IMG/VR virus record: IMGVR_UViG_3300031414_000008
Coordinates: 1-64,000 of that record
Reading direction: 5' to 3' (one strand)
Length of the DNA: 64,000 nt
Source of the DNA: a virus
The notes below the pieces were generated by a model. It had not been told where the DNA came from, ran no database searches, and saw nothing but the letters and a program-made list of their open reading frames with translations. Position numbers and translations under genes: made by a program. Below, one piece after another: positions 25,482 through 54,573 of the stretch; the first letter of the stretch is position 1; each line of letters opens with the position of its first letter.

Positions 25482-25497
25482 TATTTTAGGGTATAAG
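25482..25497. promoter_or_regulatory. Back-to-back promoter element TATTTTA-G-GGTATAAG
   Basis: At a divergent junction; same spacing at 27307 and 54558. Confidence 0.7.
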
Positions 25498-25522
25498 GAT
25501 AGTGTAAACAACAGGAGCAATT

Positions 25523-25789
25523 ATGAAAGGCATTACGCATCGTTACACCTTCCGTGTCTGGGAGTTCAATCATCCCGAACCTGGATACATCGATCCGGCA
25601 CACGTGCGGATGCAAGCGTTCTACCAAGATACTTACCTCTGGGGCGTCCGGATAAAACGTCGAGTGCTGTTCAAAGAGCAGGTTCCTAACTTCGCCTGGA
25701 TTCAACAGGGGTGCTGTGGTTGGTGTGACTGGAAGTCTGCGTGTCCGCCGGACATCTGGCTCCTCTGCACCGGTAAAGTCAAGGCGTGA
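25523..25789 (+). CDS. Hypothetical Cys/Trp-rich protein
   Basis: 88 aa, AGGAG RBS, downstream of GGTATAAG. Confidence 0.75.
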   Translation: MKGITHRYTFRVWEFNHPEPGYIDPAHVRMQAFYQDTYLWGVRIKRRVLFKEQVPNFAWIQQGCCGWCDWKSACPPDIWLLCTGKVKA

Positions 25790-25794
25790 AATCT

Positions 25795-25802
25795 GGTATA
25801 AG
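25795..25802 (+). promoter_or_regulatory. GGTATAAG phage promoter motif
   Basis: Recurrent motif upstream of + strand genes. Confidence 0.65.
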
Positions 25803-25849
25803 TAAAGTATAGAAACGAAGGGGTTTGCCCTCGTAAACGGAGAAATATT

Positions 25850-26212
25850 ATGGCTGCAACAATCGCTACGTCGTTAAAGGTGATTAAGCTTCAGGACCAC
25901 CCTATCAAGCTGGCTCAGTTTGACGGGACCACGTGGGTAGCTCTTAAATCGCTGACCAGCTTCTTGAATCTCGACTATGAGAAACAAGTCCGGACCCTGG
26001 CCGGTAACACGTCACTGTCTGCCCTTGGCAGTCCGACGATTGCCCCGCAGGCGAAGATGTTGGTTGACCCTGACGGGGTGCACGACATGTGGGTACCTAT
26101 GGGGGACGTTTCCCTGTGGGCATCGAAGTTGATCATGGAGGATATGACGAAGCTTGACCGTCAGAACCTCTGCACGCAACTTCTGCCTGGCCTGATGGCT
26201 AAGGCTTTCTAA
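25850..26212 (+). CDS. Antirepressor-N (P22_AR_N/BRO-N-like) DNA-binding domain protein
   Basis: IKLAQFDGTTWVALKSLTSFLNLDYEKQVRTL resembles the P22 Ant N-terminal pattern (V.l..i...lGl.w..Q..kl). Confidence 0.55.
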   Translation: MAATIATSLKVIKLQDHPIKLAQFDGTTWVALKSLTSFLNLDYEKQVRTLAGNTSLSALGSPTIAPQAKMLVDPDGVHDMWVPMGDVSLWASKLIMEDMTKLDRQNLCTQLLPGLMAKAF

Positions 26213-26231
26213 GAGGGGTAACCCTCTTTTT
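26211..26231 (+). terminator. Rho-independent terminator
   Basis: AAGAGGG-GTAA-CCCTCTT then T run. Confidence 0.7.
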
Positions 26232-26233
26232 CG

Positions 26234-26449
26234 CCTCCCGTTACATCAAAAGTTACACAGAAACCCAGTCGTGGTGCGGGTTTCAGAGGATTCAAACGTT
26301 GTAACCTTTCAAACGTCACCCTAAGACATCTATAGGTAGAGTCCTACTATATATATTACGAATGTCTTTTTTAAAAAATAAATAATATATGGACTCCCTA
26401 TATCTCTATAGGGGTGTGTTCAGGCCGGTTTGAACGGTTACAACGTTTG
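26234..26449. repeat. Origin-like element, copy 1
   Basis: Non-coding; 14-bp perfect inverted repeat CAAACGTTGTAACC (26293-26306)/GGTTACAACGTTTG (26436-26449) around an AT-rich core; about 100 bp near-identical to 63479-63581. Confidence 0.9.
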
Positions 26450-26472
26450 TCCCAGCCTGAACACCTGTCATA

Positions 26473-27141
26473 TCAAGCGTTCTGCTCGTACGACTGTTCT
26501 CGACGATCGGCGTAGTAACCTGCCATGTTCCCTGCAGCGTTACCGATACGTGACATTAAGTAGGCCGAACCCAGTGCCCCGCCGACGGCGAGTAACGGGT
26601 TGGTTTCACCCTTCATGATGATCCGGGTGGCGAGTGGGACAACGGACGCGATCCCCAGGGCGGACCCGAGGTTCGAGTACTGCGACTGCCGTTTACTCAT
26701 GATGTTCACGTGCGTCAAGGCTTCCGGAAGTACACCCGCTCGGTCGGCGACATCAATCCCGCCGTCGATGGCAGCGTCACCGGCTCGACCCGCGGCATAA
26801 CCCCCTGCTATGCTTCCCAGGAGCGCCCCTACGAGGCGTGCGTAAGGGTTCCCTTGGGCTACTAGCGCCCCGACCCGAGAACCCGCCACAGCGCCTCCTG
26901 CGGCTCCTGCGGTACGCACGGCGTCCTTAGCGACGTATGCGATATCATCCACCGGTCGTGTCCAGAGGGCTTGTTTGTACATCGGATCCTTACGCAGGAT
27001 CTGACGGACGCGGGCCTTCAGGTACGACAGGGCGAGCTTGTGCGGGCGAGGGTCTGTCATCGCCTTGAGCACGACTTTCGATTCCGGCGCCCGATAGGTT
27101 TCAACGGCTACGGGAACCGGGGTTGCGATGTCATTTGGCAT
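26473..27141 (-). CDS. Glycine-zipper-like membrane/virion protein
   Basis: 222 aa; AGAAGGAVAGSRVG...LLGSIAGGYAAGRAG and a second Gly-rich hairpin. Confidence 0.7.
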   Translation of the reverse strand: MPNDIATPVPVAVETYRAPESKVVLKAMTDPRPHKLALSYLKARVRQILRKDPMYKQALWTRPVDDIAYVAKDAVRTAGAAGGAVAGSRVGALVAQGNPYARLVGALLGSIAGGYAAGRAGDAAIDGGIDVADRAGVLPEALTHVNIMSKRQSQYSNLGSALGIASVVPLATRIIMKGETNPLLAVGGALGSAYLMSRIGNAAGNMAGYYADRREQSYEQNA

Positions 27142-27286
27142 TCTTACCTCTCAATTTCAGAGCACGACGGTACATGCCCTTTCCTGCCAGTCGGGTACCT
27201 TTGAAGAGACTACGCAGTGCGATGAACCCACCGATCGTAGCCCCGAGCTTGATCCCCTTGTCTAGATAGTCTAAATGATCGTTCAT
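27131..27286 (-). CDS. Small basic amphipathic protein (51 aa)
   Basis: Below the ORF-track cutoff; GGAGG RBS; MNDHLDYLDKGIKLGATIGGFIALRSLFKGTRLAGKGMYRRALKLRGKNAK; TAAAATA upstream. Confidence 0.65.
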   Translation of the reverse strand: MNDHLDYLDKGIKLGATIGGFIALRSLFKGTRLAGKGMYRRALKLRGKNAK

Positions 27287-27306
27287 AGTGTCCTCCATTC
27301 AGTGTT

Positions 27307-27322
27307 TATTTTAGGGTATAAG
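27307..27322. promoter_or_regulatory. Back-to-back promoter element TATTTTA-G-GGTATAAG
   Basis: Divergent junction; identical to 25482-25497. Confidence 0.7.
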
Positions 27323-27359
27323 AAAAGAGTACACAACACAGTTACTTTTGGAGATAAAC

Positions 27360-28229
27360 ATGCAGACAGGATCCGTACTGACTCTGAACTTTTACTCAAA
27401 CCCGATTGACGTGATGATCGGTGATGACCAAACGATCTACCTCAACTGGAAGCACTACTGCGACATGATCAGTAATGACCCTGAGATCGCCCCGCACAAC
27501 ATCACCCGCGGTGAATTCGATGTGGATTACGTTGCGTTTTCCTACGTCGTGCTCCACGCGGACAATCTCGTCTACGGTCACCCGGATCCGCTCTTCGCCA
27601 ATCTTGTCCGCGATGAGTTCCCGGGCTACATCATTAAGGAATTAGGCCTGATTCGGGAGATGATTCCGATGATTGACCTGCCTTACCACATGTACGACGC
27701 TGGCATCTTCCAGCACAACGGCAAACTGTTCGTCCTGGTCGATAAACTCAAACGCTTCACCAACCAGATCGAACCTCATATCCCGCTCGACGTCCCGCGG
27801 TTCCCGATCATGATCAAGGTGCAAATGCCTCGCACGGGGTTTGTCGCCTTCGGTGAACGCCCTAAGAAGGACGAGATGGCCTACCCGACGTGGATGGTTG
27901 AAGCTAACTCTCTGGCGTATATCGTGGAGTCATCTTACCGCAACCATCCGCCCTTTCAGGTCATGACGAATTGTATGGAGCATGCGATAAAAGTTAACAA
28001 GGGCTTTGACATCGAATCCCTTGGCCCTGCCCAGCGCTTCGACTCTCCGGGCATCGTCGGCACGCATCGCTGTGAGCTCGATCCGGAACAGGTCCAGGCA
28101 GTTCAAGCCCGGGATGCTATGATGAAGTCTAGTCGTTGGGAAGAGCCTAAGAACCTCTCTGGGTTGCTGTTTAACGAAGAGCCGATGACCTGGGCGGGCT
28201 CCGGGCTGACGCTCAAGTCCGAGTTGTAA
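27360..28229 (+). CDS. Hypothetical protein, possibly two BRO-N/Ant-N-like domains
   Basis: Start ATG 27360 (GGAG RBS); PIDVMIGDDQTIYLNWKHYCDMI and AGIFQHNGKLFVLVDKLKRF. Confidence 0.65.
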   Translation: MQTGSVLTLNFYSNPIDVMIGDDQTIYLNWKHYCDMISNDPEIAPHNITRGEFDVDYVAFSYVVLHADNLVYGHPDPLFANLVRDEFPGYIIKELGLIREMIPMIDLPYHMYDAGIFQHNGKLFVLVDKLKRFTNQIEPHIPLDVPRFPIMIKVQMPRTGFVAFGERPKKDEMAYPTWMVEANSLAYIVESSYRNHPPFQVMTNCMEHAIKVNKGFDIESLGPAQRFDSPGIVGTHRCELDPEQVQAVQARDAMMKSSRWEEPKNLSGLLFNEEPMTWAGSGLTLKSEL

Positions 28230-28251
28230 AATCAGGGCGGAGGTATCGCCC

Positions 28252-28581
28252 ATGCTAGTCACACTGTACATCAATGGACTCGCCGTTGATACGCTGAGAG
28301 ACAACAGGATTATCTACGTCGATATCGTGAAACTCTGGAAAACGCTGAAGATTCGGGAATACCGTCAACCTCTTCCGGCTAACCTGGAGCTCATCACGAA
28401 CGATTCGGATAAAGCCTACACCATCGGGAACTACTGTACGGTTGACGAGACGATGACAGCACTGAACGCTGTCCCGCCGGAAGCCTACGAGCAGCCAGCC
28501 CTGGGTGAAGTCATGAAGCGGGGACTCGTAGAAGTCCTGGACCGTTACTGGTCCGCTCAACCCGAGTTCTCACCTGTTTAA
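28252..28581 (+). CDS. Hypothetical protein, BRO-N/Ant-N-like
   Basis: GGAGG RBS; AVDTLRDNRIIYVDIVKLWKTLKI. Confidence 0.65.
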   Translation: MLVTLYINGLAVDTLRDNRIIYVDIVKLWKTLKIREYRQPLPANLELITNDSDKAYTIGNYCTVDETMTALNAVPPEAYEQPALGEVMKRGLVEVLDRYWSAQPEFSPV

Positions 28582-28600
28582 GGCCCTGCGGGGCCTTTTC
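28580..28600 (+). terminator. Rho-independent terminator
   Basis: AAGGCCC-TGCG-GGGCCTT-TT. Confidence 0.6.
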
Positions 28601-28613
28601 TATTGGAGTTGGC

Positions 28614-28931
28614 ATGAGAGCTGTGAAAGAAGGTAAGCAAGGCCAGAACGTGATGTCATATCATGGACTGGAATTCGTTAAGGACATTGGCCGTCCGTAC
28701 ATCGTTATCTCTTCAATTCGGAATACTGCCGCAGTCTCAGGCCCTGAGATCAAGGCTGCAGTAAAAACCCTAAGAGTCAGGCAGCATCGGCTGCTAGTTC
28801 AAAGGGGAACTCGGGAATTCCATGCAAATTGTATTCGACTGAAAGATCTCGCTGCCGTGGATCAACAACTCGGTGGGAAAATTACGGGAATAGTCGAAGA
28901 TCTCCTCAATGAGTATAGGAACTATCTATGA
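28614..28931 (+). CDS. Hypothetical protein, BRO-N/Ant-N-like
   Basis: GGAG RBS; GLEFVKDIGRPYIVISSIRNTAAV. Confidence 0.6.
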   Translation: MRAVKEGKQGQNVMSYHGLEFVKDIGRPYIVISSIRNTAAVSGPEIKAAVKTLRVRQHRLLVQRGTREFHANCIRLKDLAAVDQQLGGKITGIVEDLLNEYRNYL

Positions 28932-29730: not shown

Positions 29731-29764
29731 GAAAAACCCCAGGTCTCCCTGGGGTTTCTTTTTA
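29729..29764. terminator. Bidirectional terminator
   Basis: A run-CCCCAGG-TCTC-CCTGGGG-T run between convergent genes (GAGA tetraloop on the - strand). Confidence 0.85.
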
Positions 29765-32700
29765 GCCGATCTTAATCGGAGTGTTCGCGTCGATCTCGCC
29801 GGCATGCAGGGCTGCGAGTGCCTCCGCTTCCGTCTTGAACTCATGAACCTTCTTCTCCATGTCCGGCTTGGTCAGGTGCACAGAGCCGAGGATGGCTTCG
29901 TGGCCTGGGGCGAACATCGGCGTACCGTAACCGCGACGGGCGTCGTGCAGGTGGTTGCTCGGCATTAACTTCTCACGAGCTTCCTTCACGGCTTCCGGAG
30001 TCATCGGCAGATACATCGACAAGGCGTCACCGTCGTAGTCCGCAGCGTAGCCTGGCAGGTGCAGGATGTTCAGACCGATGGTCTTCCCGTCCGTCGGGAT
30101 TGGCTTCATCGCCATGACGTTGGTACGCATCAGCGTAGGAGCACGGTTCAGCAGTACTGGTACGGTGTCAACCATGTGGTTGAACGAAGCCATGGCTGCG
30201 TCGTTACGCTCTTCGTACGCCTTTTTAGCGTCGGCGAGGTCGTAGCCCTTCTGGGACAGGTCGCGGATGATGTGCATCTTGTACATCTCCCACAGCTGAT
30301 CCTTCGGAATCTTCGCCTCGTTGAAGCCTACGTCCGGCGCCGCGTAGATGGTACCACGACCGGAGAAGTCCTGTTTCTTCGACAGCAACTTACTCTGGAA
30401 GTAACCGTTCTTCGGCCCTTCGTTACCTTCGATCTGCTCCATCAGACCCTTGATACCTTTCTGCTTCGCTTGGAAGTCGATCGGTTCACCAGAGGCCATG
30501 ATCGCCTTCGCACCGTTGTACAGGTCACGACGCAGATCGACCATCCCTTCCATGTCCGGAGACAGCATGTCCATGCCGATCTCTTCGTCCAGACGCTTCA
30601 GACGGCCGTTCACCAGCATGTGGTGTTTGTACAGCTCGTTCACGTCAGCGTAAGACAGACGGCTACCCGAGATGGAGTACGGACGCATCACCGGTGGGAT
30701 AACCGGCATGTGGTTCAGGATGTACGCCTTCGATGGATCGCTGAAGCCTTGCTTGTCTAGACCCGCCAGGTACTTCATACGCTTCACCATCTTGTCACGC
30801 TTGGCGACAGACTTCTCGGTACCCACGGCTTCACGCAGATGAGCCAGCTCTTCCTGGACGTTGATGCTGCCCAGCATCTCCTTCATCGCGTGCCCGCCGA
30901 CCAGTGTCTCACCCGCCTCGGAAGCTTCCTTACCGAGCACACCAGAGGTGTTGATGCGTTTGATGATCTTGTCGTTGTCGTGCGTGTCGACCAGGTTGAA
31001 GTGACCGGCACCGACCTTCTGCACGCCGTACTTACCGCTGACCACGTGGTTGAACTCGTCTTTGTTCAGCCCAAGCAGGTGTTTCACCGGGTCTTCCATT
31101 ACTGGGTTGACGATCGGTTCCATCAGCTTGTAGTGAGACCAGTTCTTCCCTTCCGGACCGCCGGTGATGTTCATATCGAACAGACCACCTTTAACCGGTG
31201 CCACGTTACGGGCCAGGATCATGTCGGGCTTCTGGATTTCCCCAGCAGACTGAGACAGTACCTCGCGGTCGGTCATCGGGCCGGCAACCAGATTACCGTT
31301 ACGCTCAGAGACGGAAATCCCTGAACCCTTCAGGTAATCGAAGAACTTACGGGTCGCGAACGTCGTCTTCGGCTGCGGCAGTGGCAGGCCACGCATGAAC
31401 TTGTCCCAGTAGTCGTGAGTGTCAGCGTGGTCGCCGCCCTCAGACTTCACGGTACCGATCTCTTTCAGGTTCGCACGGGCGTTCGAGCCGAGCAGGCCCA
31501 GGAACTCCATGTAACCCACAGACTTCGCACCATCGTCACCACCCTTGGTAGGCTGGGCGTTGTTGTCGTAGCCGCCGACTGAACGGGCTGAGTAGTTCGC
31601 ATCCGTCGTCTTGTTCAGCTTCAGGATGTACTGCGGACCGGTCATGACCTTCTCGCCGTACACGTGGCCGGTCTTCGGATCGTACACCTTATCGGTGTCA
31701 GACAGACCATGCTCGTGCAGCTCGTCCTGCAGGTGCTTAACGATCGCCTTGCCGTCGCCGTGTTCGTAGACCTTGGTCTTGTACGGCTTGCCCGTCTTCT
31801 GAGCAATCTTACCGGCCGCGGCTTCGAAGACCTGACCCAGGTTGATACGGGAGGTTACGGACGCCGGGTTCAGAATCATGTCGAGCGGCTTACCGTTCGC
31901 ATGCGGCATCTCGTCGTCTTCCAGAATCAGGGAGACAACACCCTTGTTACCGTGCAGACCTGTTACCTTGTCACCGGTCTCGAGCTTACGCTCAGAGCGG
32001 ATCATGATGCGGACTTTCTTACCGTCGGTAGAACAGTCGGTTACCACACCTGGCTCTTCGTGATCCCAGATCTCAGCGGCTGAACGATATGGGTTAACCA
32101 GGGTCTTGTGCAGACGGCCCAGAACCATGTCGGTTTCAGTCAGCTGGCGTTGCTCGAGGACCGCGTAGACCGGGTCACCGTAGTGCAGCGTTACGCCTGG
32201 CTTAGCGAAGCCGCGAGAGTCGAGCTTATTCAGCTGCTCTGCAGTGAACTTGCCACCGAAGGACGCCTTGTACTTCGACAGGTCAGAGACCGTCTCTTTA
32301 CTGACGTTGTACTCTACCTTATAGGCGTGGTTCGAAGTCAGCTTCTCGGTCGCTGAACGAGATACAACGATACCATCTTCATGGTTGAAGCCTTTGAACG
32401 GCATGTAGGCCGTCTCGAGGTTCTTACCGATGGCGAAGTCGCCGTGCTTCGTGTAGTTGTTGTCAGACAGAACCTGACCGGCAACGACGTTGTCCCCTGC
32501 ATGCAGGTTGTGCGGTTCGTCGTCGTGGAAGCCCTTCATGTTGAACGGGAGGTTCTTCACGAAGTCTACACGGTGTTCTTTACCGTCTTCACCCTTGATG
32601 TGCACCGAAGTGGCATCGGCTTTGGTGACGGTACCTGTGACCGGGGCGACCGTCGAAACGATCTGGCCGATCTGCTTCACGAAGGTGTGACCGGCGTCAG

Positions 32701-34342
32701 TCACAGTCTGCACGAGTGGTGCTTCACGGTGAACGAGCGACAGTGCCTGAGGAATCGCCTTACCGGCCATGGTCAGACGACCTGGGTGGTTGGTGTTCAG
32801 GAACGGCACGAGGTTAGTCGTGATCGTGTACATGTCGGTACCGGACGGAATCCAGTACTCCACCTCTGAGCGAGGGATAGATTTGAACTCACCGTTGACC
32901 TGAGCCTGGACCTGCGGCTTGCCGTTCTTGCGGCCATCCGGGAAACCAATCTTCTTGGTCATCAGTTCGTTCGCTGACAGATAAACCGTCTTGCCGGTCT
33001 TGGCGTCGATCGCACGGGCGTACATTCCGCCTTCCTTGTCACGGCGGGCAGAAATGGTGAAACGCTGGTCCAGACCGGCAGAGGATGACTCTGGCGTACG
33101 GGACGGGTCGATGATCCCCAGGTTCGATGGGTGCACGTTACGTGACTCCATGGTCGCCTGACGTTCAGAGGACATCCCGCCTTCACCTTGAGCGATCAAC
33201 GTTACCTTACCGACGTTCTCGATGGACTCGATCGGGTTAGTTTCGTCCGGGGTTGATGACAGCTGAGAGCCGATCACGAAATCCGTGTAGATCTTGTTGA
33301 AAGGCTTGGCCGGCAGAACGTCACGCAGCGACGGAGCGTCGTCCTTCAGTTTGCTCAAGTTGAACTTGATGCGGTCGAAGGCTTTGCCTACGGTCTGGTG
33401 CTGCTTGTTCTCTTCGAAGCGACGGCCGATGAAGTCCGGCAGGTTCTGAACACGCTTGAACTGCAGGGAGTCACGGTTGTCTTCAGGACGCTTCTTCGAG
33501 TACACGGCAACGATGTTCTTCATCGCACGCAGCAGGGTTTCCGGCTCGATACCGCCGAAGGATTTACCCAGAGTGACTTCCGTCGTCTGCTTGTCCAGAG
33601 TCATTTCACCCAGACGGTGCTTCAGGGCAGCCCCCATCTCTTCCGGAGAAACAGACTTGGTCTGCTCACGACGGTCAACGAGACGACGGTACAGCTGGCT
33701 CAGCGCCAGGTCTTCTTTCCCTTGAGCAAGCTTCTTGTTCGCCTGCCATACTTCGGCCGGCACGAATTGCTGCACGTCGGCGTCAGACAGGCCAAAGCCC
33801 TTGGTCATCAACGGAGCGATAGGGATGTGCAGGTTCTTCCCGTTGATCTTCGAGAAGTAGATCTCCATCGATTTGGAGTCCAGGCCGAGAGAGAACGTCG
33901 CACCCTTACCGGTGTTGATGTTGGTCTCGAGCTCACCGTTCCCGGTCTTACGGGTATACACGCCCGGACGCAGCTGCATCAGGTTGGCTACGGAGTAGTT
34001 GTTCCCTTTGTACAGCAGCGTGTGCTTGTTGGTTACGTGGAAGGTATCCGCCAGGGCGAAGTTCTGGACACGGTCAAGCAGTTTCCCCGTCGCACGGTCG
34101 TGCAGGAGTAACGTACCCCGGATAGGGTACGTCAGGGAGCGAGACTGCAGGATAGCGTCCTTCTCATCGGCCGTGGTGTATTCCTTCTTGTCGACGTGCG
34201 GGTCCACCACGGTAAGGGTGTACTTGCCCGTCTCAATCGGGAATTGCTTAGTGATCCCTTCCATCATCGCACGATCAGTGGCATCGTTGATGTCACGAGG
34301 CGACGAGAAGATAGGGGTCAGTTCACTGGCTGACTTAGGCAT
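29762..34342 (-). CDS. RNA polymerase beta / beta-prime N-terminal half fusion
   Basis: beta motifs SQLS...NP, RNVHPSNLG..DP..TPE, FNHEDGIVVS, GDKVTGLHGNKGVV, DMILNP...SRINLGQ, YILKLN; then beta-prime motifs GEIQKP...GGLFD, LLSKKQDFSGRG, VLLNRAPTL and catalytic DYDGD (30026-30040). Confidence 0.95.
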   Translation of the reverse strand: MPKSASELTPIFSSPRDINDATDRAMMEGITKQFPIETGKYTLTVVDPHVDKKEYTTADEKDAILQSRSLTYPIRGTLLLHDRATGKLLDRVQNFALADTFHVTNKHTLLYKGNNYSVANLMQLRPGVYTRKTGNGELETNINTGKGATFSLGLDSKSMEIYFSKINGKNLHIPIAPLMTKGFGLSDADVQQFVPAEVWQANKKLAQGKEDLALSQLYRRLVDRREQTKSVSPEEMGAALKHRLGEMTLDKQTTEVTLGKSFGGIEPETLLRAMKNIVAVYSKKRPEDNRDSLQFKRVQNLPDFIGRRFEENKQHQTVGKAFDRIKFNLSKLKDDAPSLRDVLPAKPFNKIYTDFVIGSQLSSTPDETNPIESIENVGKVTLIAQGEGGMSSERQATMESRNVHPSNLGIIDPSRTPESSSAGLDQRFTISARRDKEGGMYARAIDAKTGKTVYLSANELMTKKIGFPDGRKNGKPQVQAQVNGEFKSIPRSEVEYWIPSGTDMYTITTNLVPFLNTNHPGRLTMAGKAIPQALSLVHREAPLVQTVTDAGHTFVKQIGQIVSTVAPVTGTVTKADATSVHIKGEDGKEHRVDFVKNLPFNMKGFHDDEPHNLHAGDNVVAGQVLSDNNYTKHGDFAIGKNLETAYMPFKGFNHEDGIVVSRSATEKLTSNHAYKVEYNVSKETVSDLSKYKASFGGKFTAEQLNKLDSRGFAKPGVTLHYGDPVYAVLEQRQLTETDMVLGRLHKTLVNPYRSAAEIWDHEEPGVVTDCSTDGKKVRIMIRSERKLETGDKVTGLHGNKGVVSLILEDDEMPHANGKPLDMILNPASVTSRINLGQVFEAAAGKIAQKTGKPYKTKVYEHGDGKAIVKHLQDELHEHGLSDTDKVYDPKTGHVYGEKVMTGPQYILKLNKTTDANYSARSVGGYDNNAQPTKGGDDGAKSVGYMEFLGLLGSNARANLKEIGTVKSEGGDHADTHDYWDKFMRGLPLPQPKTTFATRKFFDYLKGSGISVSERNGNLVAGPMTDREVLSQSAGEIQKPDMILARNVAPVKGGLFDMNITGGPEGKNWSHYKLMEPIVNPVMEDPVKHLLGLNKDEFNHVVSGKYGVQKVGAGHFNLVDTHDNDKIIKRINTSGVLGKEASEAGETLVGGHAMKEMLGSINVQEELAHLREAVGTEKSVAKRDKMVKRMKYLAGLDKQGFSDPSKAYILNHMPVIPPVMRPYSISGSRLSYADVNELYKHHMLVNGRLKRLDEEIGMDMLSPDMEGMVDLRRDLYNGAKAIMASGEPIDFQAKQKGIKGLMEQIEGNEGPKNGYFQSKLLSKKQDFSGRGTIYAAPDVGFNEAKIPKDQLWEMYKMHIIRDLSQKGYDLADAKKAYEERNDAAMASFNHMVDTVPVLLNRAPTLMRTNVMAMKPIPTDGKTIGLNILHLPGYAADYDGDALSMYLPMTPEAVKEAREKLMPSNHLHDARRGYGTPMFAPGHEAILGSVHLTKPDMEKKVHEFKTEAEALAALHAGEIDANTPIKIG

Positions 34343-36359: not shown

Positions 36360-36366
36360 GATTTTA
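36360..36366 (-). promoter_or_regulatory. TAAAAT(C) late-type motif variant
   Basis: 30 nt upstream of the portal ATG. Confidence 0.5.
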
Positions 36367-36393
36367 GCGGATTCAACGATGGAAAGCCAGGAT

Positions 36394-36401
36394 GGTATAA
36401 G
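36394..36401 (+). promoter_or_regulatory. GGTATAAG phage promoter motif
   Basis: GGTATAAG-GAAG-GTGTA, 27 nt before ATG. Confidence 0.65.
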
Positions 36402-36850: not shown

Positions 36851-36858
36851 GGTATAAG
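36851..36858 (+). promoter_or_regulatory. GGTATAAG phage promoter motif
   Basis: GGTATAAG-AGTT-GTGTA. Confidence 0.65.
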
Positions 36859-38195: not shown

Positions 38196-39117
38196 TGTTT
38201 CCGTAGGTGAAGACGCGAGTCTGCACAACGGTTACCTCTGAGTCGTAGTCCAGCTCCCCACCCAGGATAACTTGATGTAGAGCGGCATCGATCGAGAAGT
38301 TCGTCTGGTGCACACCGGTCACGTACACGTCCAGTGAGTCCTTACCGTAGGACAGGTCGATGTCCGGGAAGCCCGTCAGGTTCACGATCTTCGAGCCCTT
38401 CGGCACGGTCTGTGACGCACGGTACTTACGGAAGCGGGCGTTTTCCAGCTTGGTCTTAGACTGACCGGTAACGAGGTCTGAGATGTTCGACTGGTCAATC
38501 CAGTGGATCGCCGTGATGTCGTTCTTCGTCAGGGACGTCTGTCCGAACTTGATGATGAAGCTGAAGCACGCGGTGTTCCCGGTGTCAGGATACATGATCG
38601 GTTCGGCGTTGGTGCTGGTGTACTCACCGCTCGACTTGATGGAGAAACGAGCCACCTTCGTCAGAGAATCCACGCCCGGGACGATAGACTGAGCCGTCGC
38701 CTCTTCCATGTAAGCCTGAACCAGGTACTTGATGCTCTTCCCTGCAGTGCCCGGCGCCGCCAGGTTGACCAGGTTAGTCGGAGCATCGTGAACCGCCATT
38801 GTCGGCACGCGGAAGTACGGGTTGTCGATGTCAAACGGGATTGTCTGAACGAGGTATCCGAACAGGATATTCAGGTTCAGCCCGCCTGGGAAGTACAGGT
38901 TGCCTACGAAGGCCTGATCGGTAGAGAACTGAATCCCGATTGAAGCCGCCGCCAGCGAACCACGGTTGAATGCACCCTTGGTAATATCTAGCTGATCTGC
39001 TAGAATAGCGATGTTGTCGCTAATGTCCTTTAATGGACGGTTATCGACGTCAACGTAGTAAGGGTCGAGGTTCGTGTAGTAACGGACCTGCTTTAATTTC
39101 GATTGAGTTGTGGCCAT
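38185..39117 (-). CDS. Putative virion structural (baseplate/fibre-associated) protein
   Basis: N-terminal RYY...DPYYVDVDNRPL.D...N pattern seen in large-phage structural proteins; TAAACTA upstream. Confidence 0.6.
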   Translation of the reverse strand: MATTQSKLKQVRYYTNLDPYYVDVDNRPLKDISDNIAILADQLDITKGAFNRGSLAAASIGIQFSTDQAFVGNLYFPGGLNLNILFGYLVQTIPFDIDNPYFRVPTMAVHDAPTNLVNLAAPGTAGKSIKYLVQAYMEEATAQSIVPGVDSLTKVARFSIKSSGEYTSTNAEPIMYPDTGNTACFSFIIKFGQTSLTKNDITAIHWIDQSNISDLVTGQSKTKLENARFRKYRASQTVPKGSKIVNLTGFPDIDLSYGKDSLDVYVTGVHQTNFSIDAALHQVILGGELDYDSEVTVVQTRVFTYGNITV

Positions 39118-39142
39118 GTTGTCCTCTCATAGGTGATACACA

Positions 39143-39149
39143 TAGTTTA
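39143..39149 (-). promoter_or_regulatory. TAAACTA late-type motif
   Basis: 25 nt upstream of ATG 39117. Confidence 0.6.
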
Positions 39150-39160
39150 ATAGGTGGAGC

Positions 39161-41074
39161 ATGCAACTAGCTTTTACTCCGGACAGGAGGAACGTTCTGT
39201 TCGTCCCCGAGACGACGGCTGAGGATACCATCCTTACAGCCTTCCCCGCACTGTATAAGGTACGCGGCGAGCGCTTTGCCCCGGCGTTCCCTAGTATTTT
39301 ACAGAACATCGTCACGCGTTTGAAGAAGAAGATCAAGACGATCACGACCAAAGAGAAGGACATCGTTGATCTCCTGAAGCGGGAGCCGACGCTTCTCCCT
39401 ATCCCGTCAGCCTTTAAGTATTTCACCACTCCGCTCGAGCATCAAGAGCTCGCCCTCCGATTTCTCTATACGCGAGGCGGCGGCGGTCTACTGCTGGACC
39501 CAGGCCTGGGGAAAACGAAGGTCGTCCTCGATTACATCGCACTAATGGGCTTTGAGAAGTCACTGATCGTGTGTCCAGTGGCCCTGCGTGACGTGTGGAT
39601 CGATGAGGTTCAGACGCACCGTCCGGACAAGACGATTCACGTCATGGAGTCCACTAACTGGGACTCGCTCATGGTCTCTGCCAAGCAGCGTGCGAAGAAA
39701 TGGGAAGAGGCTCTTGAGCGTGCAGCCGAGGGTTCTGACGGGTGGAAGAAAGCCCGCTCGAACTTGATGACTGCTGAACGTGAGATCAAGAAGATCCCGG
39801 CGTTGAAGCAGAAAGACTTGGACGCAGCCGCAGCGGCGGACATCATCGTGATTAACTATAACAAGGCCACGATCAATAAGGACCTGGCGTCTCACCAGAT
39901 TGCCACCGGTGTCGACTTCCTGACGAAGCACTTCAAGATCGACTTCGTGGCCCTGGATGAAGCCCTGATCAAGGCTCACGACACGGCCCGTACCCGTGAC
40001 CTCCTGAAGCTTGCGTCGGTGGTGCCGTACCGTGTTATCATGTCCGGAACGCTCATCAACAACACCGCCCTCGATGCCTTCGCCCCGATTCGCTTCCTCC
40101 AGCCGGCGCTGACCGGAATGGCGTACGGGAAGTTCGACCAGCACTACGGCATCAAGATCAAGCCGCGGGGCAAGACCTTCTCGGTGACGATCGGCGTGTC
40201 CAAGGCGAACATGCAGGAGATCCGTGAGATTCTCGAGGCGTGTTCGATCGTCATGCGTAAGGAAGACTGGCTGAAGCTTCCGGATAAGCACTTCCACGAG
40301 GTCCGCTTCGAACTCTCCGAGATTCAGAAAGCCATGTACTCCGGGCTCGTCTCAAACTACGCCTACGCTCTGCCTTCCGGTGAAGTGGTGCAGGTCGACA
40401 ACGGTCTGGGGCTGCTCTCGAAGGTCCAGCAGATCGCCAACGGCTTCCTTTACTATAAGGAACAGTCGCAGGATCCGCTGGATATCCTGTTCGGGGCCGA
40501 AAAAGAGGACTCGCCCCGCCAGACCTTCTTCTTCGAGGAACAACCGAAGCTGAATGCTCTGGGCGACCTGATGGACGGACCGATTAAAGGCCGCAAGTTC
40601 ATCCTCTGGTATAACTGCCAGGCTGAACACGAACTCGTCACCAAGTTCCTTGATAGCCGTAGAATCAAGCACGTCTCTGTCCGCGGCGGTACCAAGAACA
40701 CCGGTGCCATCGTCCGACAGTTCAACACCGACCCGTCGATCTCTGTGATGATCTGCCAAGCCAAGGCGGTGAACTATGGTATCACGGTGCTCGGCCGCGA
40801 CCCGGAGCAGCTTGAAAGCATCGATGAGGTGCTGCCGGAATTCTCCACCCGCGTCTACACACACGTCTTCTACTCACTGAACTACTCGCTCGAGGTCTTC
40901 CTTCAGCAGCAGGACCGTTCTCACCGTATCGGTCAGACCCATGACGTCGACTACTTCATCCTCTTGGGTGAATGTGCGGCCGAAACCCAGGTCTACGAAG
41001 CGATGCAGGCGAAGATGGTCATTCGTGAGTCCGTACTCGTGGACTTTTCGAAAAGGCTCAAACCACTGGTATAA
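39161..41074 (+). CDS. SNF2-family helicase
   Basis: LLLDPGLGKT, LDEA, IMSGTLINN, QQQDRSHRIGQ. Confidence 0.9.
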   Translation: MQLAFTPDRRNVLFVPETTAEDTILTAFPALYKVRGERFAPAFPSILQNIVTRLKKKIKTITTKEKDIVDLLKREPTLLPIPSAFKYFTTPLEHQELALRFLYTRGGGGLLLDPGLGKTKVVLDYIALMGFEKSLIVCPVALRDVWIDEVQTHRPDKTIHVMESTNWDSLMVSAKQRAKKWEEALERAAEGSDGWKKARSNLMTAEREIKKIPALKQKDLDAAAAADIIVINYNKATINKDLASHQIATGVDFLTKHFKIDFVALDEALIKAHDTARTRDLLKLASVVPYRVIMSGTLINNTALDAFAPIRFLQPALTGMAYGKFDQHYGIKIKPRGKTFSVTIGVSKANMQEIREILEACSIVMRKEDWLKLPDKHFHEVRFELSEIQKAMYSGLVSNYAYALPSGEVVQVDNGLGLLSKVQQIANGFLYYKEQSQDPLDILFGAEKEDSPRQTFFFEEQPKLNALGDLMDGPIKGRKFILWYNCQAEHELVTKFLDSRRIKHVSVRGGTKNTGAIVRQFNTDPSISVMICQAKAVNYGITVLGRDPEQLESIDEVLPEFSTRVYTHVFYSLNYSLEVFLQQQDRSHRIGQTHDVDYFILLGECAAETQVYEAMQAKMVIRESVLVDFSKRLKPLV

Positions 41075-42727: not shown

Positions 42728-43006
42728 ATGAAGATGAAGATTCACGTGAGAGAGTGTCAGCTGGAAATCGTTCCGGAGAGCGGGGCCGAGAGAAAGGATA
42801 TCGAGAAGAAAGCGAACCTTGCTATGCGTAAGTTCGACGTTTCTTCCCGTGTAGCCCGCATCCTGGCAGCTGCTGCAATCTGTACTGAGCTTCGCGACGA
42901 CATCTCAGTGGACTTGAAGCACGTCCATTACCAGGATAGGTCGTTCTCGATATACCCCAAAGGGTTGGATGGCGCCTCGTACCCAGAAGTAACCGTCTGC
43001 CCGTAA
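42728..43006 (+). CDS. Hypothetical protein
   Basis: 92 aa, GGAG RBS; 3' end overlaps the sigma gene in antisense. Confidence 0.55.
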   Translation: MKMKIHVRECQLEIVPESGAERKDIEKKANLAMRKFDVSSRVARILAAAAICTELRDDISVDLKHVHYQDRSFSIYPKGLDGASYPEVTVCP

Positions 43007-43788
43007 CCGTCTTCCATCGTATCACGCAGTAATTCTAAGCTCTTACTCAGGGAGCGCTTAACGTACGCCTGATTGTACTTAGGATCGGCCAGTGACTTAA
43101 CGATCTCCGCCGGCTTCATTTCGACCCCGTCGATGATGCCGTAGGCGAGCTTAACGATTTGGTTGTCCGGGTAGGGCAATGCGTCAATAGCCGTAAGAAG
43201 GCTATTATTTTCCAGTTCGTCCACCAACTGATCAATCGGGTGGACAATCGGCATGTCGGTATCCTTCATGTTGTCCAGATAGAAGGTGATGTACTGGGTC
43301 TTACTCAGTTCCCGCAGATCCTTGACGGACGCATTGGGGAACTCTTCACGGAGTTCAGCCAGCGTTGGCACCGAGTCTCGCTCCTCTACGAAGCGTTTGA
43401 TCTTGGTCGCTAATTGTTGTTTCTGAGCCGGCAGCGCCACTAAACGCCAGCGGGACATCTCTTTGAGTTGACGCTGCATTACCCACCATCCGGCGTATGT
43501 CAGTAAGCGTACGCCCGACTGGGGATCGAATTTGTCCAGACCAGCTAGAAGACCCTCGTTGCCAGCAGCGATCAGGTCTTCGAACTGTTCGACGTTGCCG
43601 CGGGAGTATTTCTTGGCACGCTTGAACACATACCGCAGGTTTGAGCAGATGAGAATATCACGAGCCCGTGCTTTAGCCGCCTTCGTTGATGTAGCAGAGA
43701 AGTAGACCTGCAGGTGTGCGTCTTCCTGTTCCTTCGTCAGAATCGGATAGCGCTCGCAGATTTCCTCGTAGTATTTTGTCAATCCCAT
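42928..43788 (-). CDS. Phage sigma70-family sigma factor
   Basis: Region 1.2-like YYEEICERYPILT.EQE; region 2 SNLRYVFKRAKKY...EDLIAAGNEGL..GLDKFDP.SGVRLLTYAGWW; diverged region 4; start ATG 43788 (AGGAG RBS). Confidence 0.92.
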   Translation of the reverse strand: MGLTKYYEEICERYPILTKEQEDAHLQVYFSATSTKAAKARARDILICSNLRYVFKRAKKYSRGNVEQFEDLIAAGNEGLLAGLDKFDPQSGVRLLTYAGWWVMQRQLKEMSRWRLVALPAQKQQLATKIKRFVEERDSVPTLAELREEFPNASVKDLRELSKTQYITFYLDNMKDTDMPIVHPIDQLVDELENNSLLTAIDALPYPDNQIVKLAYGIIDGVEMKPAEIVKSLADPKYNQAYVKRSLSKSLELLRDTMEDGYGQTVTSGYEAPSNPLGYIENDLSW

Positions 43789-43812
43789 TGTGTTCTCCTG
43801 GTTAGTCGAGGT

Positions 43813-43841
43813 ATAGTACCGTCCGTAGCCCGATAAGTCAA
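43813..43841 (-). promoter_or_regulatory. Host sigma70-type promoter for the phage sigma gene
   Basis: TTGACT (43841-43836)-N17-TACTAT (43818-43813). Confidence 0.75.
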
Positions 43842-43852: not shown

Positions 43853-44044
43853 ATGATCAAGATCGACGTACTGAAGAAATCCAACGGACTGGTCACCCTC
43901 GTGATCCAGACCAACAACCCCACTCAGGACAAAGACAAACTGGACCTGATCGGGGCTGCCATCATGTCTACCGGCCAGAAACGCGGTGGGTTCAAATCCG
44001 AATCTCAGCTCGAAGTATCCGTGCTGGATTCCACAATCGCCTAA
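43853..44044 (+). CDS. Small hypothetical protein
   Basis: 63 aa, GAGG RBS. Confidence 0.65.
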   Translation: MIKIDVLKKSNGLVTLVIQTNNPTQDKDKLDLIGAAIMSTGQKRGGFKSESQLEVSVLDSTIA

Positions 44045-44057: not shown

Positions 44058-44058
44058 T

Positions 44059-44944: not shown

Positions 44945-44985
44945 AGGCCTGGAAAGGCTACAATGAGGCCTACCCAGGAGAAACC

Positions 44986-45882: not shown

Positions 45883-45915
45883 AAGAAAAACCCCGGTCTC
45901 CCGGGGTTCTTTTTT
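45881..45915. terminator. Bidirectional terminator
   Basis: A run-CCCCGG-TCTC-CCGGGG-T run between convergent genes. Confidence 0.85.
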
Positions 45916-50931: not shown

Positions 50932-51247
50932 TGAACCACCCCGCTCCGTAAGAGGCAATCCACTTCACGCCATCGAGGGTGAAGAGAGTGATCTCATCGG
51001 CATATCCCACGTCGTAAGCAAGCTTCGGTGTACGGAAGAACGCGAACTGAATGTTCGTCGCCCATTGAACCTTACGACCTTGTGCAGTTTGCTTAAGGAT
51101 CAGGGAGATCTTCGTCCCCGGATCGGAGTTAGCGACAGCGATGGTGGTCAGTGGCTCTGAAAGGGGTAGCACGAAAACATCACCCTGCAGAGGATTCACA
51201 GTGTAGTTGTTTCCGACGCTTGCTTCAGTCTTAATCGTTAATTTCAT
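50924..51247 (-). CDS. Small beta-sandwich fibre-associated protein
   Basis: Start ATG 51247 (GGAG RBS); LKQTAQGRKVQW...TP.L...DEITLFTLDGVKW, a module common at fibre C-termini. Confidence 0.7.
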   Translation of the reverse strand: MKLTIKTEASVGNNYTVNPLQGDVFVLPLSEPLTTIAVANSDPGTKISLILKQTAQGRKVQWATNIQFAFFRTPKLAYDVGYADEITLFTLDGVKWIASYGAGWFNA

Positions 51248-51288
51248 AGAGCTCCACCGATAGTTGAAGCCCGCCGAAGCGGGCAGTA

Positions 51289-52671
51289 TTACGCGATCCC
51301 GATATCTCTCCAGGCTCCGTTCTGGAAGACCTGGATCGGTCGAGAGTACATCCAACGGAATTCGTCGTTGTTACCTGACTTAGACCAGATGTAGAAGCCG
51401 GTCACCACGTTCACGCCCGGGGCACGGTACACGAAGGTTTCGTGGCCGAGAGCTGAACGCTCGATTGACACTTCTGGGCCGAGACGTAACGAGATCGTCT
51501 GGGCTTGAATTTTAGCATCAATTTCAGCTGCCGTATAGGTCCCGACGGAGTGAGCATCGATGTTGATGTCACCGGTCAAGGTCATCCCGTTCACGCGACG
51601 AGAGGTCGGTACACGGGTGTTGATCAGTGAGTCCACCTGGGCCGTCGTATAGGCACCAACCAGGGCTGCCGTGATGCTGATGTTCGAAGACAGGGCCAGG
51701 CCGTTAACCGTACGGGTTGAAGGCACACGGGTGTTGGCGTTGTCGTTCGCAGACTTCACGGAGTTCGGCGTCGCCGCCGTCGTGGTTGACGTAGAGGACA
51801 CGCTGTCCGTTAACTGCACGATACCCTGCTGAGACGTTGACGCAATCGGCAGGTCGCCCAGTTCGATCTTCTTACGCCATCCCGTGAAGGAACCTGCAGA
51901 AATTGCTGCAGTGTACATACGCCCTTCAGCGGTCACCATGGTCAGCCCACGGTAGTTCGTCGCTTCGTGAGAGGTACAGATGATCTCTGCCCAGGAGAAC
52001 GGTACGTCAGTCGGGATGCCGGTATAGCCGTAACCCGTTGACCCGTCCAGGTGGTAGAAGCCGCACGACTTGTTGTTGAAGTACGACGCCAGGTTCGAGT
52101 TGTTCGGAATACGAATAGAGATCGAGCCGATACCGTACGTATCCAGAAGGTTCTGAGTACGCAGTGAGGTCATCGCTCGGGTGTTCTCCGTCTTCGTGAT
52201 CGCTTCGGCTGCCGTTGCAATTTCAATGAAACCCTTCTGGATCTCTGTCGCGTACGGGTGGTTAATGCTGGCCTCGTGAGCTTCGATCGCCGTATCAATC
52301 CAGTTGTGAACGTCGTCCGGACGGGCAAAGGTGATCCAACCACGGAACACGTCACCGTACACTTCAGCGATCCACAGGTTGTTACCGTGAGAAGATGCAA
52401 CGATCGCACGGTTGCCCGGGATGCCGCCGTTGATCACGGTGTAGTAAACCATGTCCTTGATCGGACCACCGGTTGTGCCGGACAGGGCGGCGTTATCGTA
52501 ATACCACCCACCGGTGCAACGACCGAGGAATTTCTGCAGGTTGACCCCGTTAGGGACCTTTACGGCCTGACCGCCGACACCGTACTGATCGAGAAGGTTC
52601 TGAGCTTCATCGATCGTCAGGATCTCGGGATGTTTCACCCCGCCGCGGTCGACCACTGTTAATTGGTTCAT
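51289..52671 (-). CDS. Tail fibre protein
   Basis: AST.Q.GIVQL.DSVSSTSTT.AATPNSVK fibre repeat; RTVNG..L..NI repeats; C-terminal RLG...SRPIQ...NGAW. Confidence 0.85.
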   Translation of the reverse strand: MNQLTVVDRGGVKHPEILTIDEAQNLLDQYGVGGQAVKVPNGVNLQKFLGRCTGGWYYDNAALSGTTGGPIKDMVYYTVINGGIPGNRAIVASSHGNNLWIAEVYGDVFRGWITFARPDDVHNWIDTAIEAHEASINHPYATEIQKGFIEIATAAEAITKTENTRAMTSLRTQNLLDTYGIGSISIRIPNNSNLASYFNNKSCGFYHLDGSTGYGYTGIPTDVPFSWAEIICTSHEATNYRGLTMVTAEGRMYTAAISAGSFTGWRKKIELGDLPIASTSQQGIVQLTDSVSSTSTTTAATPNSVKSANDNANTRVPSTRTVNGLALSSNISITAALVGAYTTAQVDSLINTRVPTSRRVNGMTLTGDINIDAHSVGTYTAAEIDAKIQAQTISLRLGPEVSIERSALGHETFVYRAPGVNVVTGFYIWSKSGNNDEFRWMYSRPIQVFQNGAWRDIGIA

Positions 52672-52693
52672 GAGTTTCTCCTGTAATAGCCGT

Positions 52694-52700
52694 TATTTTA
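52694..52700 (-). promoter_or_regulatory. TAAAATA late-type motif
   Basis: 22 nt upstream of ATG 52671; overlaps the upstream stop codon. Confidence 0.6.
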
Positions 52701-53297
52701 CGAGAACGCGACGGTTTGTGCGGTGCCATCTTGAAGGATAGCTTGCAGCGGGGCGAACACACCGAGCCAACCGAGAGTGGCATCGTAGCGGACGTCAACG
52801 AGGACGTTCCCCGAGCCGATTTCTGTGGTACCCATCGGTTTCTCGACAGCCGTGCCTAGCCGCATTGCCACAGTCGGCGTGGCCGGTGTGGAGAACTTAG
52901 CACGGATGGTCGCTGCATCGTAAATGTTAAAGTCCGCCGGGGTGAACGTGATGTTCGCCGTCAGCGGTTTGTTGTTGATCTTCCAGGAAGGGTTCGCTTT
53001 CGTCTGGGCCAAGAGTTTCTTGATGATCCAGATCGACGGTGCACCTTGCTGGGAGCGGGAGTCGGCAAAGGACTCGACGTTAGAGATGCCTGAGATGCCG
53101 GCTGCGGCGTCTACTTGCACGACGTCATCGACGTTCTCCCAGGGCACCTTCTCATCGATACCCATTTTGTTGGCCAGCTGGGCCATGAGCTCGTCCACCT
53201 TCGCGTCCTTAACCGGAATGTCGTAACGCATTTGCTGTACGTCATCAGCGGTCAGGAACTTCGGATCGACGGCACCTTCAGTAACGATAGTAATCAT
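52698..53297 (-). CDS. Short tail-fibre paralogue
   Basis: KINNKPLTANITFTPAD repeat; C-terminal MRLG...APLQ. Confidence 0.75.
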   Translation of the reverse strand: MITIVTEGAVDPKFLTADDVQQMRYDIPVKDAKVDELMAQLANKMGIDEKVPWENVDDVVQVDAAAGISGISNVESFADSRSQQGAPSIWIIKKLLAQTKANPSWKINNKPLTANITFTPADFNIYDAATIRAKFSTPATPTVAMRLGTAVEKPMGTTEIGSGNVLVDVRYDATLGWLGVFAPLQAILQDGTAQTVAFS

Positions 53298-53893
53298 GCT
53301 GTTCTCCGGATGTCAGTCCACACCAGTGTACCATCCTCTTGGCGAATCTGGAACTGCAGCGGACGAGACCAGACTGGCTGGCCTGGGCCACCGAAGGACG
53401 TGATGTAGTTTGAGGACGGTACGGCGTTCAGAGCGGACTGGACCGGCGGGCCGAAACGTACCGCTTTCACCTTCGCACCCTTTGCCGCCATGGCATCCAC
53501 TTCAGCCTTCGTGAAGGTCCACAGATCGTCAGCGACCATCGTGATATCACCCTTCAGGGCAATCCCGTTGATGCAACGTTCCTGCGGCACAAAGCCCCAG
53601 CCATCAGAGTTCGCCGTACGCAGGGACGCGAGCGTCGCACCGCGGGTCTTGTCCGTTGACGGCGTGTTCGAAAGGGTCACGACCCCGGCCTGGGTCAAGG
53701 AGGCAGCGGGTTTACCGATGATGTTACCCCACTTGATGTGACCGCCTTTATCCGAGAGCAGTGGGACGCCAAGCTCCACACCGTTGATCGCCACCTGAAC
53801 GGCATCCAGTCGGGTGTAATACCCACCGATGTCCGCCTTCAGGGCTAGCGGACGTGGGTTCTTCATCCCACCTAAGTCTACGAGAGTTTTCAT
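53294..53893 (-). CDS. Short tail-fibre paralogue
   Basis: ASLTQAGVVTLSN...ATLASLR, RCINGIALKGDIT, C-terminal RFG...SRPLQ. Confidence 0.75.
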   Translation of the reverse strand: MKTLVDLGGMKNPRPLALKADIGGYYTRLDAVQVAINGVELGVPLLSDKGGHIKWGNIIGKPAASLTQAGVVTLSNTPSTDKTRGATLASLRTANSDGWGFVPQERCINGIALKGDITMVADDLWTFTKAEVDAMAAKGAKVKAVRFGPPVQSALNAVPSSNYITSFGGPGQPVWSRPLQFQIRQEDGTLVWTDIRRTA

Positions 53894-54531
53894 TGTAATT
53901 TCCACACTCCATCCACGAGGACCTTGAACTGTTTGTACTCAGCCGTGATCGAGGTCTGAGTCAGAGCAGTAATGCGTCCGATTGGTTTAGTCCGCCCGCC
54001 GGCACCGTTAGCGGAGGTCTTGGTCGTCTGAACGTAGGCGTAGTCCGTTCCGGGGAGCTCCTTAGGCAGGCGATGGGCTTCCATCAGAGCGAGAATCTGT
54101 TCGCCGGTCAGCGAGCCTACTTCTTCACCATTGATCCAGATGTCCTTACGGAGATCTTTCCCCTGAATCGTACGCTGGGCCGGGAGCGCTCCGGTGAAAT
54201 ACGCTGCAACCTGACGGACCGCATCCGGCGTCGCCGCAAGAAGGTGATCTGCATCGGTCGCCGCACCGGTCGGCTCTCCGTACTTCAACAGGCCAGGGAT
54301 CGGTTTGGCGCCCCAAGGTTGACCCTTAGCGGGGTTTTGAGCGTAGGGAACGGTCACACCGGCCCACGGCCAAGACGTTTGTTCGTACAGTTTGTTGTTG
54401 TAAGTTTGAAGTAAAAGGCTTACCTTATGCTCCAGATCGGAAATATCAGCATCCATCACCGGAAGTTCGCCCGTCTTGACGAGGCCAGGTGAGATGAACA
54501 TATTCCCGGAGATAACAGTCAAATCACTCAT
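53890..54531 (-). CDS. Short tail-fibre paralogue
   Basis: LAATPDAVRQ, RTIQGKDLRKDI; ends VDGVWKLQ. Confidence 0.7.
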   Translation of the reverse strand: MSDLTVISGNMFISPGLVKTGELPVMDADISDLEHKVSLLLQTYNNKLYEQTSWPWAGVTVPYAQNPAKGQPWGAKPIPGLLKYGEPTGAATDADHLLAATPDAVRQVAAYFTGALPAQRTIQGKDLRKDIWINGEEVGSLTGEQILALMEAHRLPKELPGTDYAYVQTTKTSANGAGGRTKPIGRITALTQTSITAEYKQFKVLVDGVWKLQ

Positions 54532-54557
54532 TTTGATCTCCTAAATCCACATATCGG

Positions 54558-54573
54558 TATTTTAAGGTATAAG
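54558..54573. promoter_or_regulatory. Back-to-back promoter element TATTTTA-A-GGTATAAG
   Basis: Divergent junction of the fibre cluster and RNase H. Confidence 0.7.

Follow-up and report, generated by a model that had tools for sequence, protein, structure and literature searches.

Abutting candidate early and late promoter cores at three divergent junctions of an Arash-like phage genome

A 16-bp element, TATTTTA-R-GGTATAAG (exact pattern TATTTTARGGTATAAG), was analyzed in bases 1-64000 (the window) of a 182,632-bp phage genome, IMG/VR record IMGVR_UViG_3300031414_000008. The window region was approximately 83% identical to Salmonella phage Arash. The element was located at three divergent gene junctions, which are called J1, J2, and J3 here. 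The 16-mer probably joins an early to a late promoter core, as independent cores of different temporal classes in their closest packing, and is not a single element. We read it as compactly arranged overlapping divergent promoters and not as a new switch type.

The three matches were located at 25482-25497 (J1), 27307-27322 (J2), and 54558-54573 (J3), all on the plus strand. The original prediction had placed the element at 25482, 27307, and 54558, with a one-base gap between two outward-facing boxes, and all of these details were correct. The search of the whole 182,632-bp genome that it had proposed gave just these three copies, all at divergent junctions. A search allowing up to 3 mismatches found no sites beyond the three exact 16-mers. 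In addition, dinucleotide-preserving shuffles (n = 100) contained no 16-mer matches. Under random placement, only about 0.002 copies of TATTTTA (10 on that strand) were expected at a given fixed distance from the 32 GGTATAAG sites. The probability that three junctions shared one spacer value was about 1e-3, even with uniform 0-30 bp spacers at divergent junctions. Chance co-occurrence of the two halves was rejected because there were three exact copies and none in the shuffles.

At J1, the late core TAAAATA was on the minus strand at 25482-25488, followed by the spacer G and the early core GGTATAAG on the plus strand at 25490-25497. The same order was found at J2 (late core minus 27307-27313, spacer G, early core plus 27315-27322) and at J3 (late core minus 54558-54564, spacer A, early core plus 54566-54573). 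TATTTTA and GGTATAAG occupied separate bases, and the 16-mer had no dyad symmetry. Its A+T content was 11/16 at J1 and J2 and 12/16 at J3, in a genome of 54% G+C. Every copy was inside a gap of 68-75 bp, with a minus-strand start codon at one end, a plus-strand start codon at the other, and a Shine-Dalgarno sequence on both sides. The start pairs were 25454/25523 (J1, 68 bp), 27286/27360 (J2, 73 bp), and 54531/54607 (J3, 75 bp), and the flanking genes began 20-37 nt past their respective cores. Recent duplication of a promoter cassette was rejected, since the flanks of J1, J2, and J3 were alike only in the class consensus.

Each half was also found alone at many co-oriented gene starts, at a fixed distance. 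This supported the view of the original prediction that both halves were outward-facing promoter cores, and pointed to promoter activity of each. For comparison, the Arash-like set consisted of this genome, Arash, and the uncultured relatives G001-G004 (six genomes), and G005 and G006 were the distant relatives. In this genome, GGTATAAG was present in 33 copies, of which 32 were on the plus strand. Each of these 32 preceded a plus-strand gene by 20-45 nt. The strand bias was 30:1 in Arash, 29-31:1 in four uncultured relatives of 172-183 kb, and 31:1 and 7:1 in two distant relatives (40-43% G+C; beta-prime C 47-49% identical). When all 7-mers were screened without bias for those enriched upstream of candidate starts, GGTATAA/GTATAAG came out on top (p ~3e-15), with TAAAATA next (1.5e-8). 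In the aligned early sites (n = 32), T was preferred before GG, and a conserved TGTA was found five bases downstream (+13 to +16). A weak upstream box, tTCcAtAA, was present at -22 to -15 in the Arash-like set. The corresponding -35-like box was clearer in G005 (TTaAt, -21 to -17). Outside the three junctions, the window contained a stand-alone early core at 25795-25802 on the plus strand and further GGTATAAG copies starting at 36851, 37034, 41068, 60367, 61915, and 62111.

As judged from these alignments, the early class is bipartite and sigma-70-family-like, with an extended -10-like tGG and a box approximately 18 bp upstream of TATAAG. The sigma-70 extended -10 element is TGnTATAAT, and host sigma-70 needs T as the last base of the -10 hexamer. 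The early consensus tGGTATAAG was similar to it in the TG-n-TATAA layout and in the box about 17-18 bp upstream. Unlike the sigma-70 element, the last hexamer base was G in 32/32 plus-strand copies and the TGTA start region was conserved, and the motif showed a 30:1 strand bias and was conserved across phages of 40-54% G+C. The final G, the strand bias, and the conservation over this range of G+C therefore indicated a phage-specific factor. A scan for sigma-70-type consensus promoters showed no enrichment (12 found vs 10.8 expected). A phage-specific factor likely reads the early class, because G invariably replaced T and consensus host promoters were not enriched.

The leftward half behaved as a second class. 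TAAAATA was present in 13 copies, and in 11 of the 13 an ATG about 8-31 nt downstream opened an open reading frame (ORF) of 40 aa or more. The twelfth copy was different (ATG at +70; palindromic partner at the TerL junction). When a Shine-Dalgarno-like sequence was also required, 9/13 copies passed. The variant TAAACTA, which was enriched as well in the 7-mer screen, preceded further structural genes. At the Arash site orthologous to 62424, TAAAATA was found where this genome has TAAACTA, and the class was therefore written as TAAA[A/C]TA. Its members were located 19-31 nt before virion, terminase, and endolysin genes. In Arash, TAAAATA preceded the endolysin gene gp39, TerL gp1, and the structural genes gp185, gp188, gp218, and gp241. 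The Arash endolysin gene was a lone gene opposing an early block, and on the early strand, too, TAAAATA was found before late-type genes, gp173c among them. Stand-alone late cores in the window were located at 22215-22221 (minus, 26 nt before a 615-aa structural gene) and 52694-52700 (minus, 22 nt before a 460-aa structural gene). The variant TAAACTA was found at 39143-39149 (minus, 25 nt before a 310-aa structural gene), with other copies at 7100-7106, 8324-8330, and 16741-16747 on the minus strand and 62424-62430 on the plus strand.

Conservation upstream of 83 unique TAAA[AC]TA sites with a downstream gene start was limited to a weak ttc at -6 to -4, with no -35 element. Host sigma-70 promoters for the leftward genes were tried as an explanation and rejected, since the -35 candidates upstream of TAAAAT were wrongly spaced and the consensus scan was not enriched. 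In G005 (L111-L119) and G006 (L120-L122; 40-43% G+C), five long ORFs had the arrangement TAAAATA-N5/6-ATG, and the long late genes placed 5-6 nt after the box included beta-prime C. This spacing suggests a late start about 6 nt downstream of the TAAAATA box. It also suggests that these late messages are leaderless, because there is no space for a ribosome-binding site between box and start. In two divergent gaps, 39117-39161 (43 bp) and Arash 30622-30659 (36 bp), a late core was found without an early core. The early-strand genes beyond them (a helicase gene, and small genes beside the endolysin gene) would therefore be reached by transcripts running antisense through the late gene.

The arrangement of the two cores was then read against the features of each class. 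At J1-J3, the late core was inside the spacer of the early promoter, flush with its -10 core, and the early box was beyond the late core. The candidate -35-like box of J1 was TTGATCAA at 25467-25474 (plus), which was a weak match. Its TGTA start region was at 25503-25506 (plus), 5 nt after the early core, and transcription is predicted to start here. The box of J2 was TCCATTCA at 27294-27301 (plus) in the late leader, with a position weight matrix (PWM) score of 2.3, the 97th percentile of background, and TCCTCCATT at J2 was invariant across the six genomes. The box of J3 was TCCACATA at 54546-54553 (plus), also in the late leader, with a PWM score of 5.5 with a 1-nt shift, and was conserved in five genomes. 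The scores of the J2 and J3 boxes fell within the class range. The early box at J1-J3 would lie in the first bases of the late transcript. When the late box was read as an 8-mer (N-TAAAATA, in the T4 fashion), its gap to the early core was zero. From the motif geometry, the divergent starts were predicted to be 28-30 bp apart.

Simultaneous occupancy of both cores at J1-J3 is unlikely because each polymerase footprint would cover the opposite core, and on this geometry steric exclusion is plausible. The original prediction had also claimed overlapping polymerase footprints. This part was plausible and even stronger than claimed, with the early -35-like box 15-22 bp upstream; mutual exclusion itself we infer from the arrangement. 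As a separate observation, the J1 late leader contained a 10-bp palindrome, GTTGATCAAC, with GATC (25466-25477), which was invariant in the six Arash-like genomes while the adjoining bases varied. The weak early -35-like box of J1, TTGATCAA, formed the core of GTTGATCAAC. The palindrome may act as an operator or as an RNA element.

Judged by its gene content, the phage seems to encode a two-chain RNA polymerase of its own, together with two sigma-like factors. A 1526-aa protein, RNA polymerase beta fused to the N-terminal part of beta-prime, was encoded at 29762-34342 (minus) and was the single RNA polymerase beta module in the whole genome. The C-terminal part of beta-prime (606 aa, 23634-25454, minus; Pfam RNA_pol_Rpb1_5, E 7e-16) was encoded on the late side of J1. 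It shared 92% identity with gp216, a protein found in Arash virions. There were two sigma-like genes in the genome. In the 286-aa product of 42928-43788 (minus; Pfam Sigma70_r2, E 5e-10; PHROG sigma factor, E 2e-24), region 2 alone was detected, and this gene is a candidate specificity factor for late promoters. The second gene (234 aa, near 150,000) was the counterpart of Arash gp10 and had region 3 with weak regions 2 and 4. Arash has been described as an 'orphan' myovirus, whose virions contain RNA polymerase beta gp206, beta-prime gp216, and the sigma factor gp10 (PMC10585845). The one late-strand GGTATAAG in the genome was located at 150801-150808 (minus). A 99-aa ORF followed 4 nt after it, and the 234-aa sigma-like gene was 304 nt downstream. 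Exactly one reverse copy was kept in 8/8 genomes examined, and it may give early expression of the 234-aa sigma-like gene.

In the mechanism that we favor, a single phage polymerase (the beta-beta'N fusion with beta'C; virion-borne in Arash) would take up the two sigma-like factors one after the other. Early promoters would be recognized by the factor that has regions 2, 3, and a weak region 4 and is packaged in Arash virions, and late promoters by the factor with region 2 alone. The early core would transcribe rightward and the directly abutting late core leftward. The constant one-base spacing would be the closest packing in divergent gaps of 68-75 bp, inherited at orthologous sites, and would not be needed by the mechanism.

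The spacing was compared across junctions and relatives. The 16-mer was unchanged in 17/18 orthologous copies (three junctions, six genomes). At J1, it was identical in Arash and G002-G004, and G001 had TATTTTA-cag-GGTATAAG, a 3-bp spacer, with leaders that looked intact. The J2 and J3 16-mers were identical in 6/6 Arash-like genomes, in the case of J3 despite a 39-bp insertion in the G001 late leader. At the terminase junction, TATTTTA was followed by 9 bp and then GGTATAAT in all genomes. The portal junction (36360-36401) had the late-type core TAAAATC (minus, 36360-36366), a 27-bp spacer, and GGTATAAG at 36394-36401. Here, the -35-like box was within the spacer, the late core was just outside the early box, and AGATTTTAG was invariant across the six genomes. 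In G005/G006, the same two motifs formed divergent junctions with 30-57 bp between them, including 45 bp before the beta-prime C gene. Two more divergent gaps of the window (43 and 64 bp) had just one of the two motifs, or a variant. In alignments of these gaps, there were about seven indel events, one of them inside the 16-mer, and no clear signal of selection on spacer length was found.

A strict spacing requirement was rejected, as spacers of 3, 9, 27, and 30-57 bp occurred. The fixed one-base spacing, which the original prediction had taken as built into the design of a switch, was contradicted by the 3-bp spacer of G001 at J1, by the 9- and 27-bp spacers of the same genome, and by the distant relatives. 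Because many spacings were found, the motif pair works at many spacings, and the Arash-like subclade has a derived, compressed form in which the cores abut. Vibrio phage D181, whose beta-prime C was 53% identical, gave no comparison, since this gene had no divergent junction and GGTATAA was not enriched. At the terminase junction (162405-162434, L125), the late core was within the palindromic TATTTTAAAATA, flanked by an inverted repeat GGTATT...AATACC, and the tandem early-like cores GGTATAAT and GGTATAGA followed.

Several points weigh against a composite of independent cores. The labels 'early', 'late', and 'promoter' come from motif position and gene function, and the proposed assignment of sigmas to classes was drawn from domain content alone. 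The -35-like box of the Arash-like genomes was weak, at 0.2-0.5 bits per position, and its match at J1 was poor. The identical offset at three non-homologous junctions was more regular than simple compaction predicts. The 16-mer was also intact where nearby leaders had gained indels, so some selection on the arrangement is possible. The last two points, with the 16-mer the same in 17/18 orthologous copies while the flanks diverged, favor a selected toggle. In this case, the one-base spacing would be kept so that the early holoenzyme blocks the late promoter and the late holoenzyme then shuts the early operons, which would sharpen the early-to-late transition at three loci, including RNase H/primase at J3. 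The interdigitated cores and -35-like box, which make co-occupancy sterically unlikely, also fit a toggle, as does the polymerase competition seen in E. coli at close divergent starts when one side is strongly driven (PMC12825309). However, G001 retained both J1 promoters with intact leaders at 3 bp, and the TerL (9 bp), portal (27 bp), and G005/G006 (30-57 bp) junctions used the same motif pair. Exclusion would be much alike at 1, 3, or 9 bp, so the spacing itself carries no information, and sigma availability alone can separate the timing. We therefore regard a selected toggle as unlikely. It is similarly doubtful that the Arash-like subclade has a sigma-competition toggle specific to it, in which one polymerase core and two sigmas would allow a single orientation at a time at J1-J3. 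If this were true, the rising late sigma would directly silence three early operons, including RNase H/primase, and early occupancy would delay beta-prime C synthesis, giving a self-timed feedback within 16 bp.

Two other readings were weighed against independent cores. Transcription-coupled supercoiling at divergent promoters is established (twin-domain model), and the 16-mer was 11/16 or 12/16 A+T in a genome of 54% G+C. The two promoters could thus be positively coupled through a shared, easily melted 16 bp, with negative supercoiling behind one polymerase helping to open the other promoter. Such co-stimulation is very improbable, since the two sides differ in temporal class (replication vs virion) and the differing motifs imply different specificity factors. 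Least probable of all, a phage regulator would bind the 16-mer as a single site, or TATTTTA would act only as an AT-rich enhancer upstream of the rightward promoter, and in both cases the leftward genes would be transcribed from elsewhere. The whole 16-mer was invariant in most orthologous copies and early promoters mildly preferred T/A at -5 to -3, as this would predict. However, the halves each occurred alone at many gene starts with the expected distance and orientation, and TATTTTA was absent from the other 29 early sites. The leftward genes of J1-J3 led their strand blocks with no alternative candidate promoter in the 68-75 bp gaps, and the 16-mer lacked dyad symmetry.

The composite was compared with known systems. 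In the bidirectional promoters of E. coli and Salmonella described by the Grainger laboratory, one polymerase binding event prevents the other (PMC12825309, PMC10268837), and this competition comes into play only where one direction is strongly active (PMC12825309). These promoters have a pseudo-symmetrical shared -10, with starts typically 18, 10, or 23 bp apart, and use the same sigma-70 holoenzyme both ways (PMC12825309, PMC10268837). Like them, J1-J3 were in compact divergent intergenic regions with starts predicted to be close. Unlike them, the J1-J3 cores shared no base and differed in sequence, with predicted starts 28-30 bp apart, and presumably use different specificity factors. With promoter activity taken from the motifs, J1-J3 are divergent promoters on opposite strands, directed away into the flanking genes and with polymerase binding regions that probably overlap, but they do not share -10 bases by symmetry as defined by Warman and Grainger. 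A truly symmetric bidirectional arrangement, in contrast to J1-J3, was observed at 43810-43841. There, TTGACT-17 bp-TACTAT preceded the start of the sigma-like gene (43788, minus) and matched a host-type promoter better than any other site in 24-44 kb. Its -10 coincided base for base with the plus-strand GGTATAGT, before a 63-aa gene at 43853.

T4 late promoters have an 8-bp TATA box at -10 and no -35 element, and gp55 recognizes them together with gp33 and the gp45 clamp (PMC2988020). The leftward cores were similar in that they consisted of one short AT-rich box, lacked a conserved element upstream, and preceded virion and lysis genes on both strands, with a predicted start about half a turn to one turn downstream. 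They differed from T4 late promoters in that TAAA[A/C]TA is not the T4 consensus, and the phage's own two-chain enzyme, not the host core, is probably used. In phage phi29, the early A2c and late A3 promoters are divergent, about 100 bp apart, use host sigma-A polymerase, and are switched by the DNA-binding protein p4, with activity moving from one to the other as infection proceeds. J1-J3 were like this pair in having a candidate early and a candidate late promoter facing apart in one short region of a lytic phage. Unlike phi29, the cores abutted and a regulator site was not evident.

The Arash paper (PMC10585845), the sole paper found on the clade, did not mention promoters, and the literature search turned up no paper on promoters of the Arash clade. 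The search for the motif returned primer matches only. Overlapping divergent promoters and -10-box-only late promoters are known kinds, and the arrangement is an ordinary outcome when a gap of about 70 bp has to hold a pair of short promoters. The novelty lies in the promoter vocabulary, which belongs to a phage transcription system not described before, and in three natural heterotypic overlaps. The analysis gives the Arash clade a testable promoter map with both classes, early and late, and the overlaps between them. J1-J3 would be convenient natural substrates for steric competition between alternative sigmas on one phage polymerase, and one of the three overlaps (J1) would control the polymerase's own beta-prime C gene.

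The genes around the junctions were examined last. In the window, the plus strand carried replication, nucleotide-metabolism, and small genes, and the minus strand carried virion, polymerase, and lysis genes. On the late side of J2 was a 51-aa gene (27131-27286, minus), followed by a 222-aa gene (26473-27141) that was the counterpart of the Arash structural protein gp213. On the early side was a 289-aa gene (27360-28229, plus), which was Arash gp211c-like and had no family match. At J3, the late side had a 213-aa gene for an Arash gp185-like structural protein (53890-54531, minus). The early side had an RNase H gene (54607-55098, plus; PHROG Rnase H, E 4.5e-43), with a DNA primase downstream (55071-57974; DNA primase hits). 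Elsewhere on the minus strand, a 1320-aa ORF at 8358-12320 between the gp228-like and major tail protein genes had no Arash counterpart at that position. The early side of J1 encoded an 88-aa protein without a family match (25523-25789, plus), and a different gene was found at this position in G002/G003. The 88-aa early-strand ORF, with its GGTATAAG promoter and Shine-Dalgarno sequence, was conserved in this genome, Arash, and G004. In Arash, gp215 (53 aa, 139168-139329) has been annotated on the late strand at this place, and this annotation is probably on the wrong strand.

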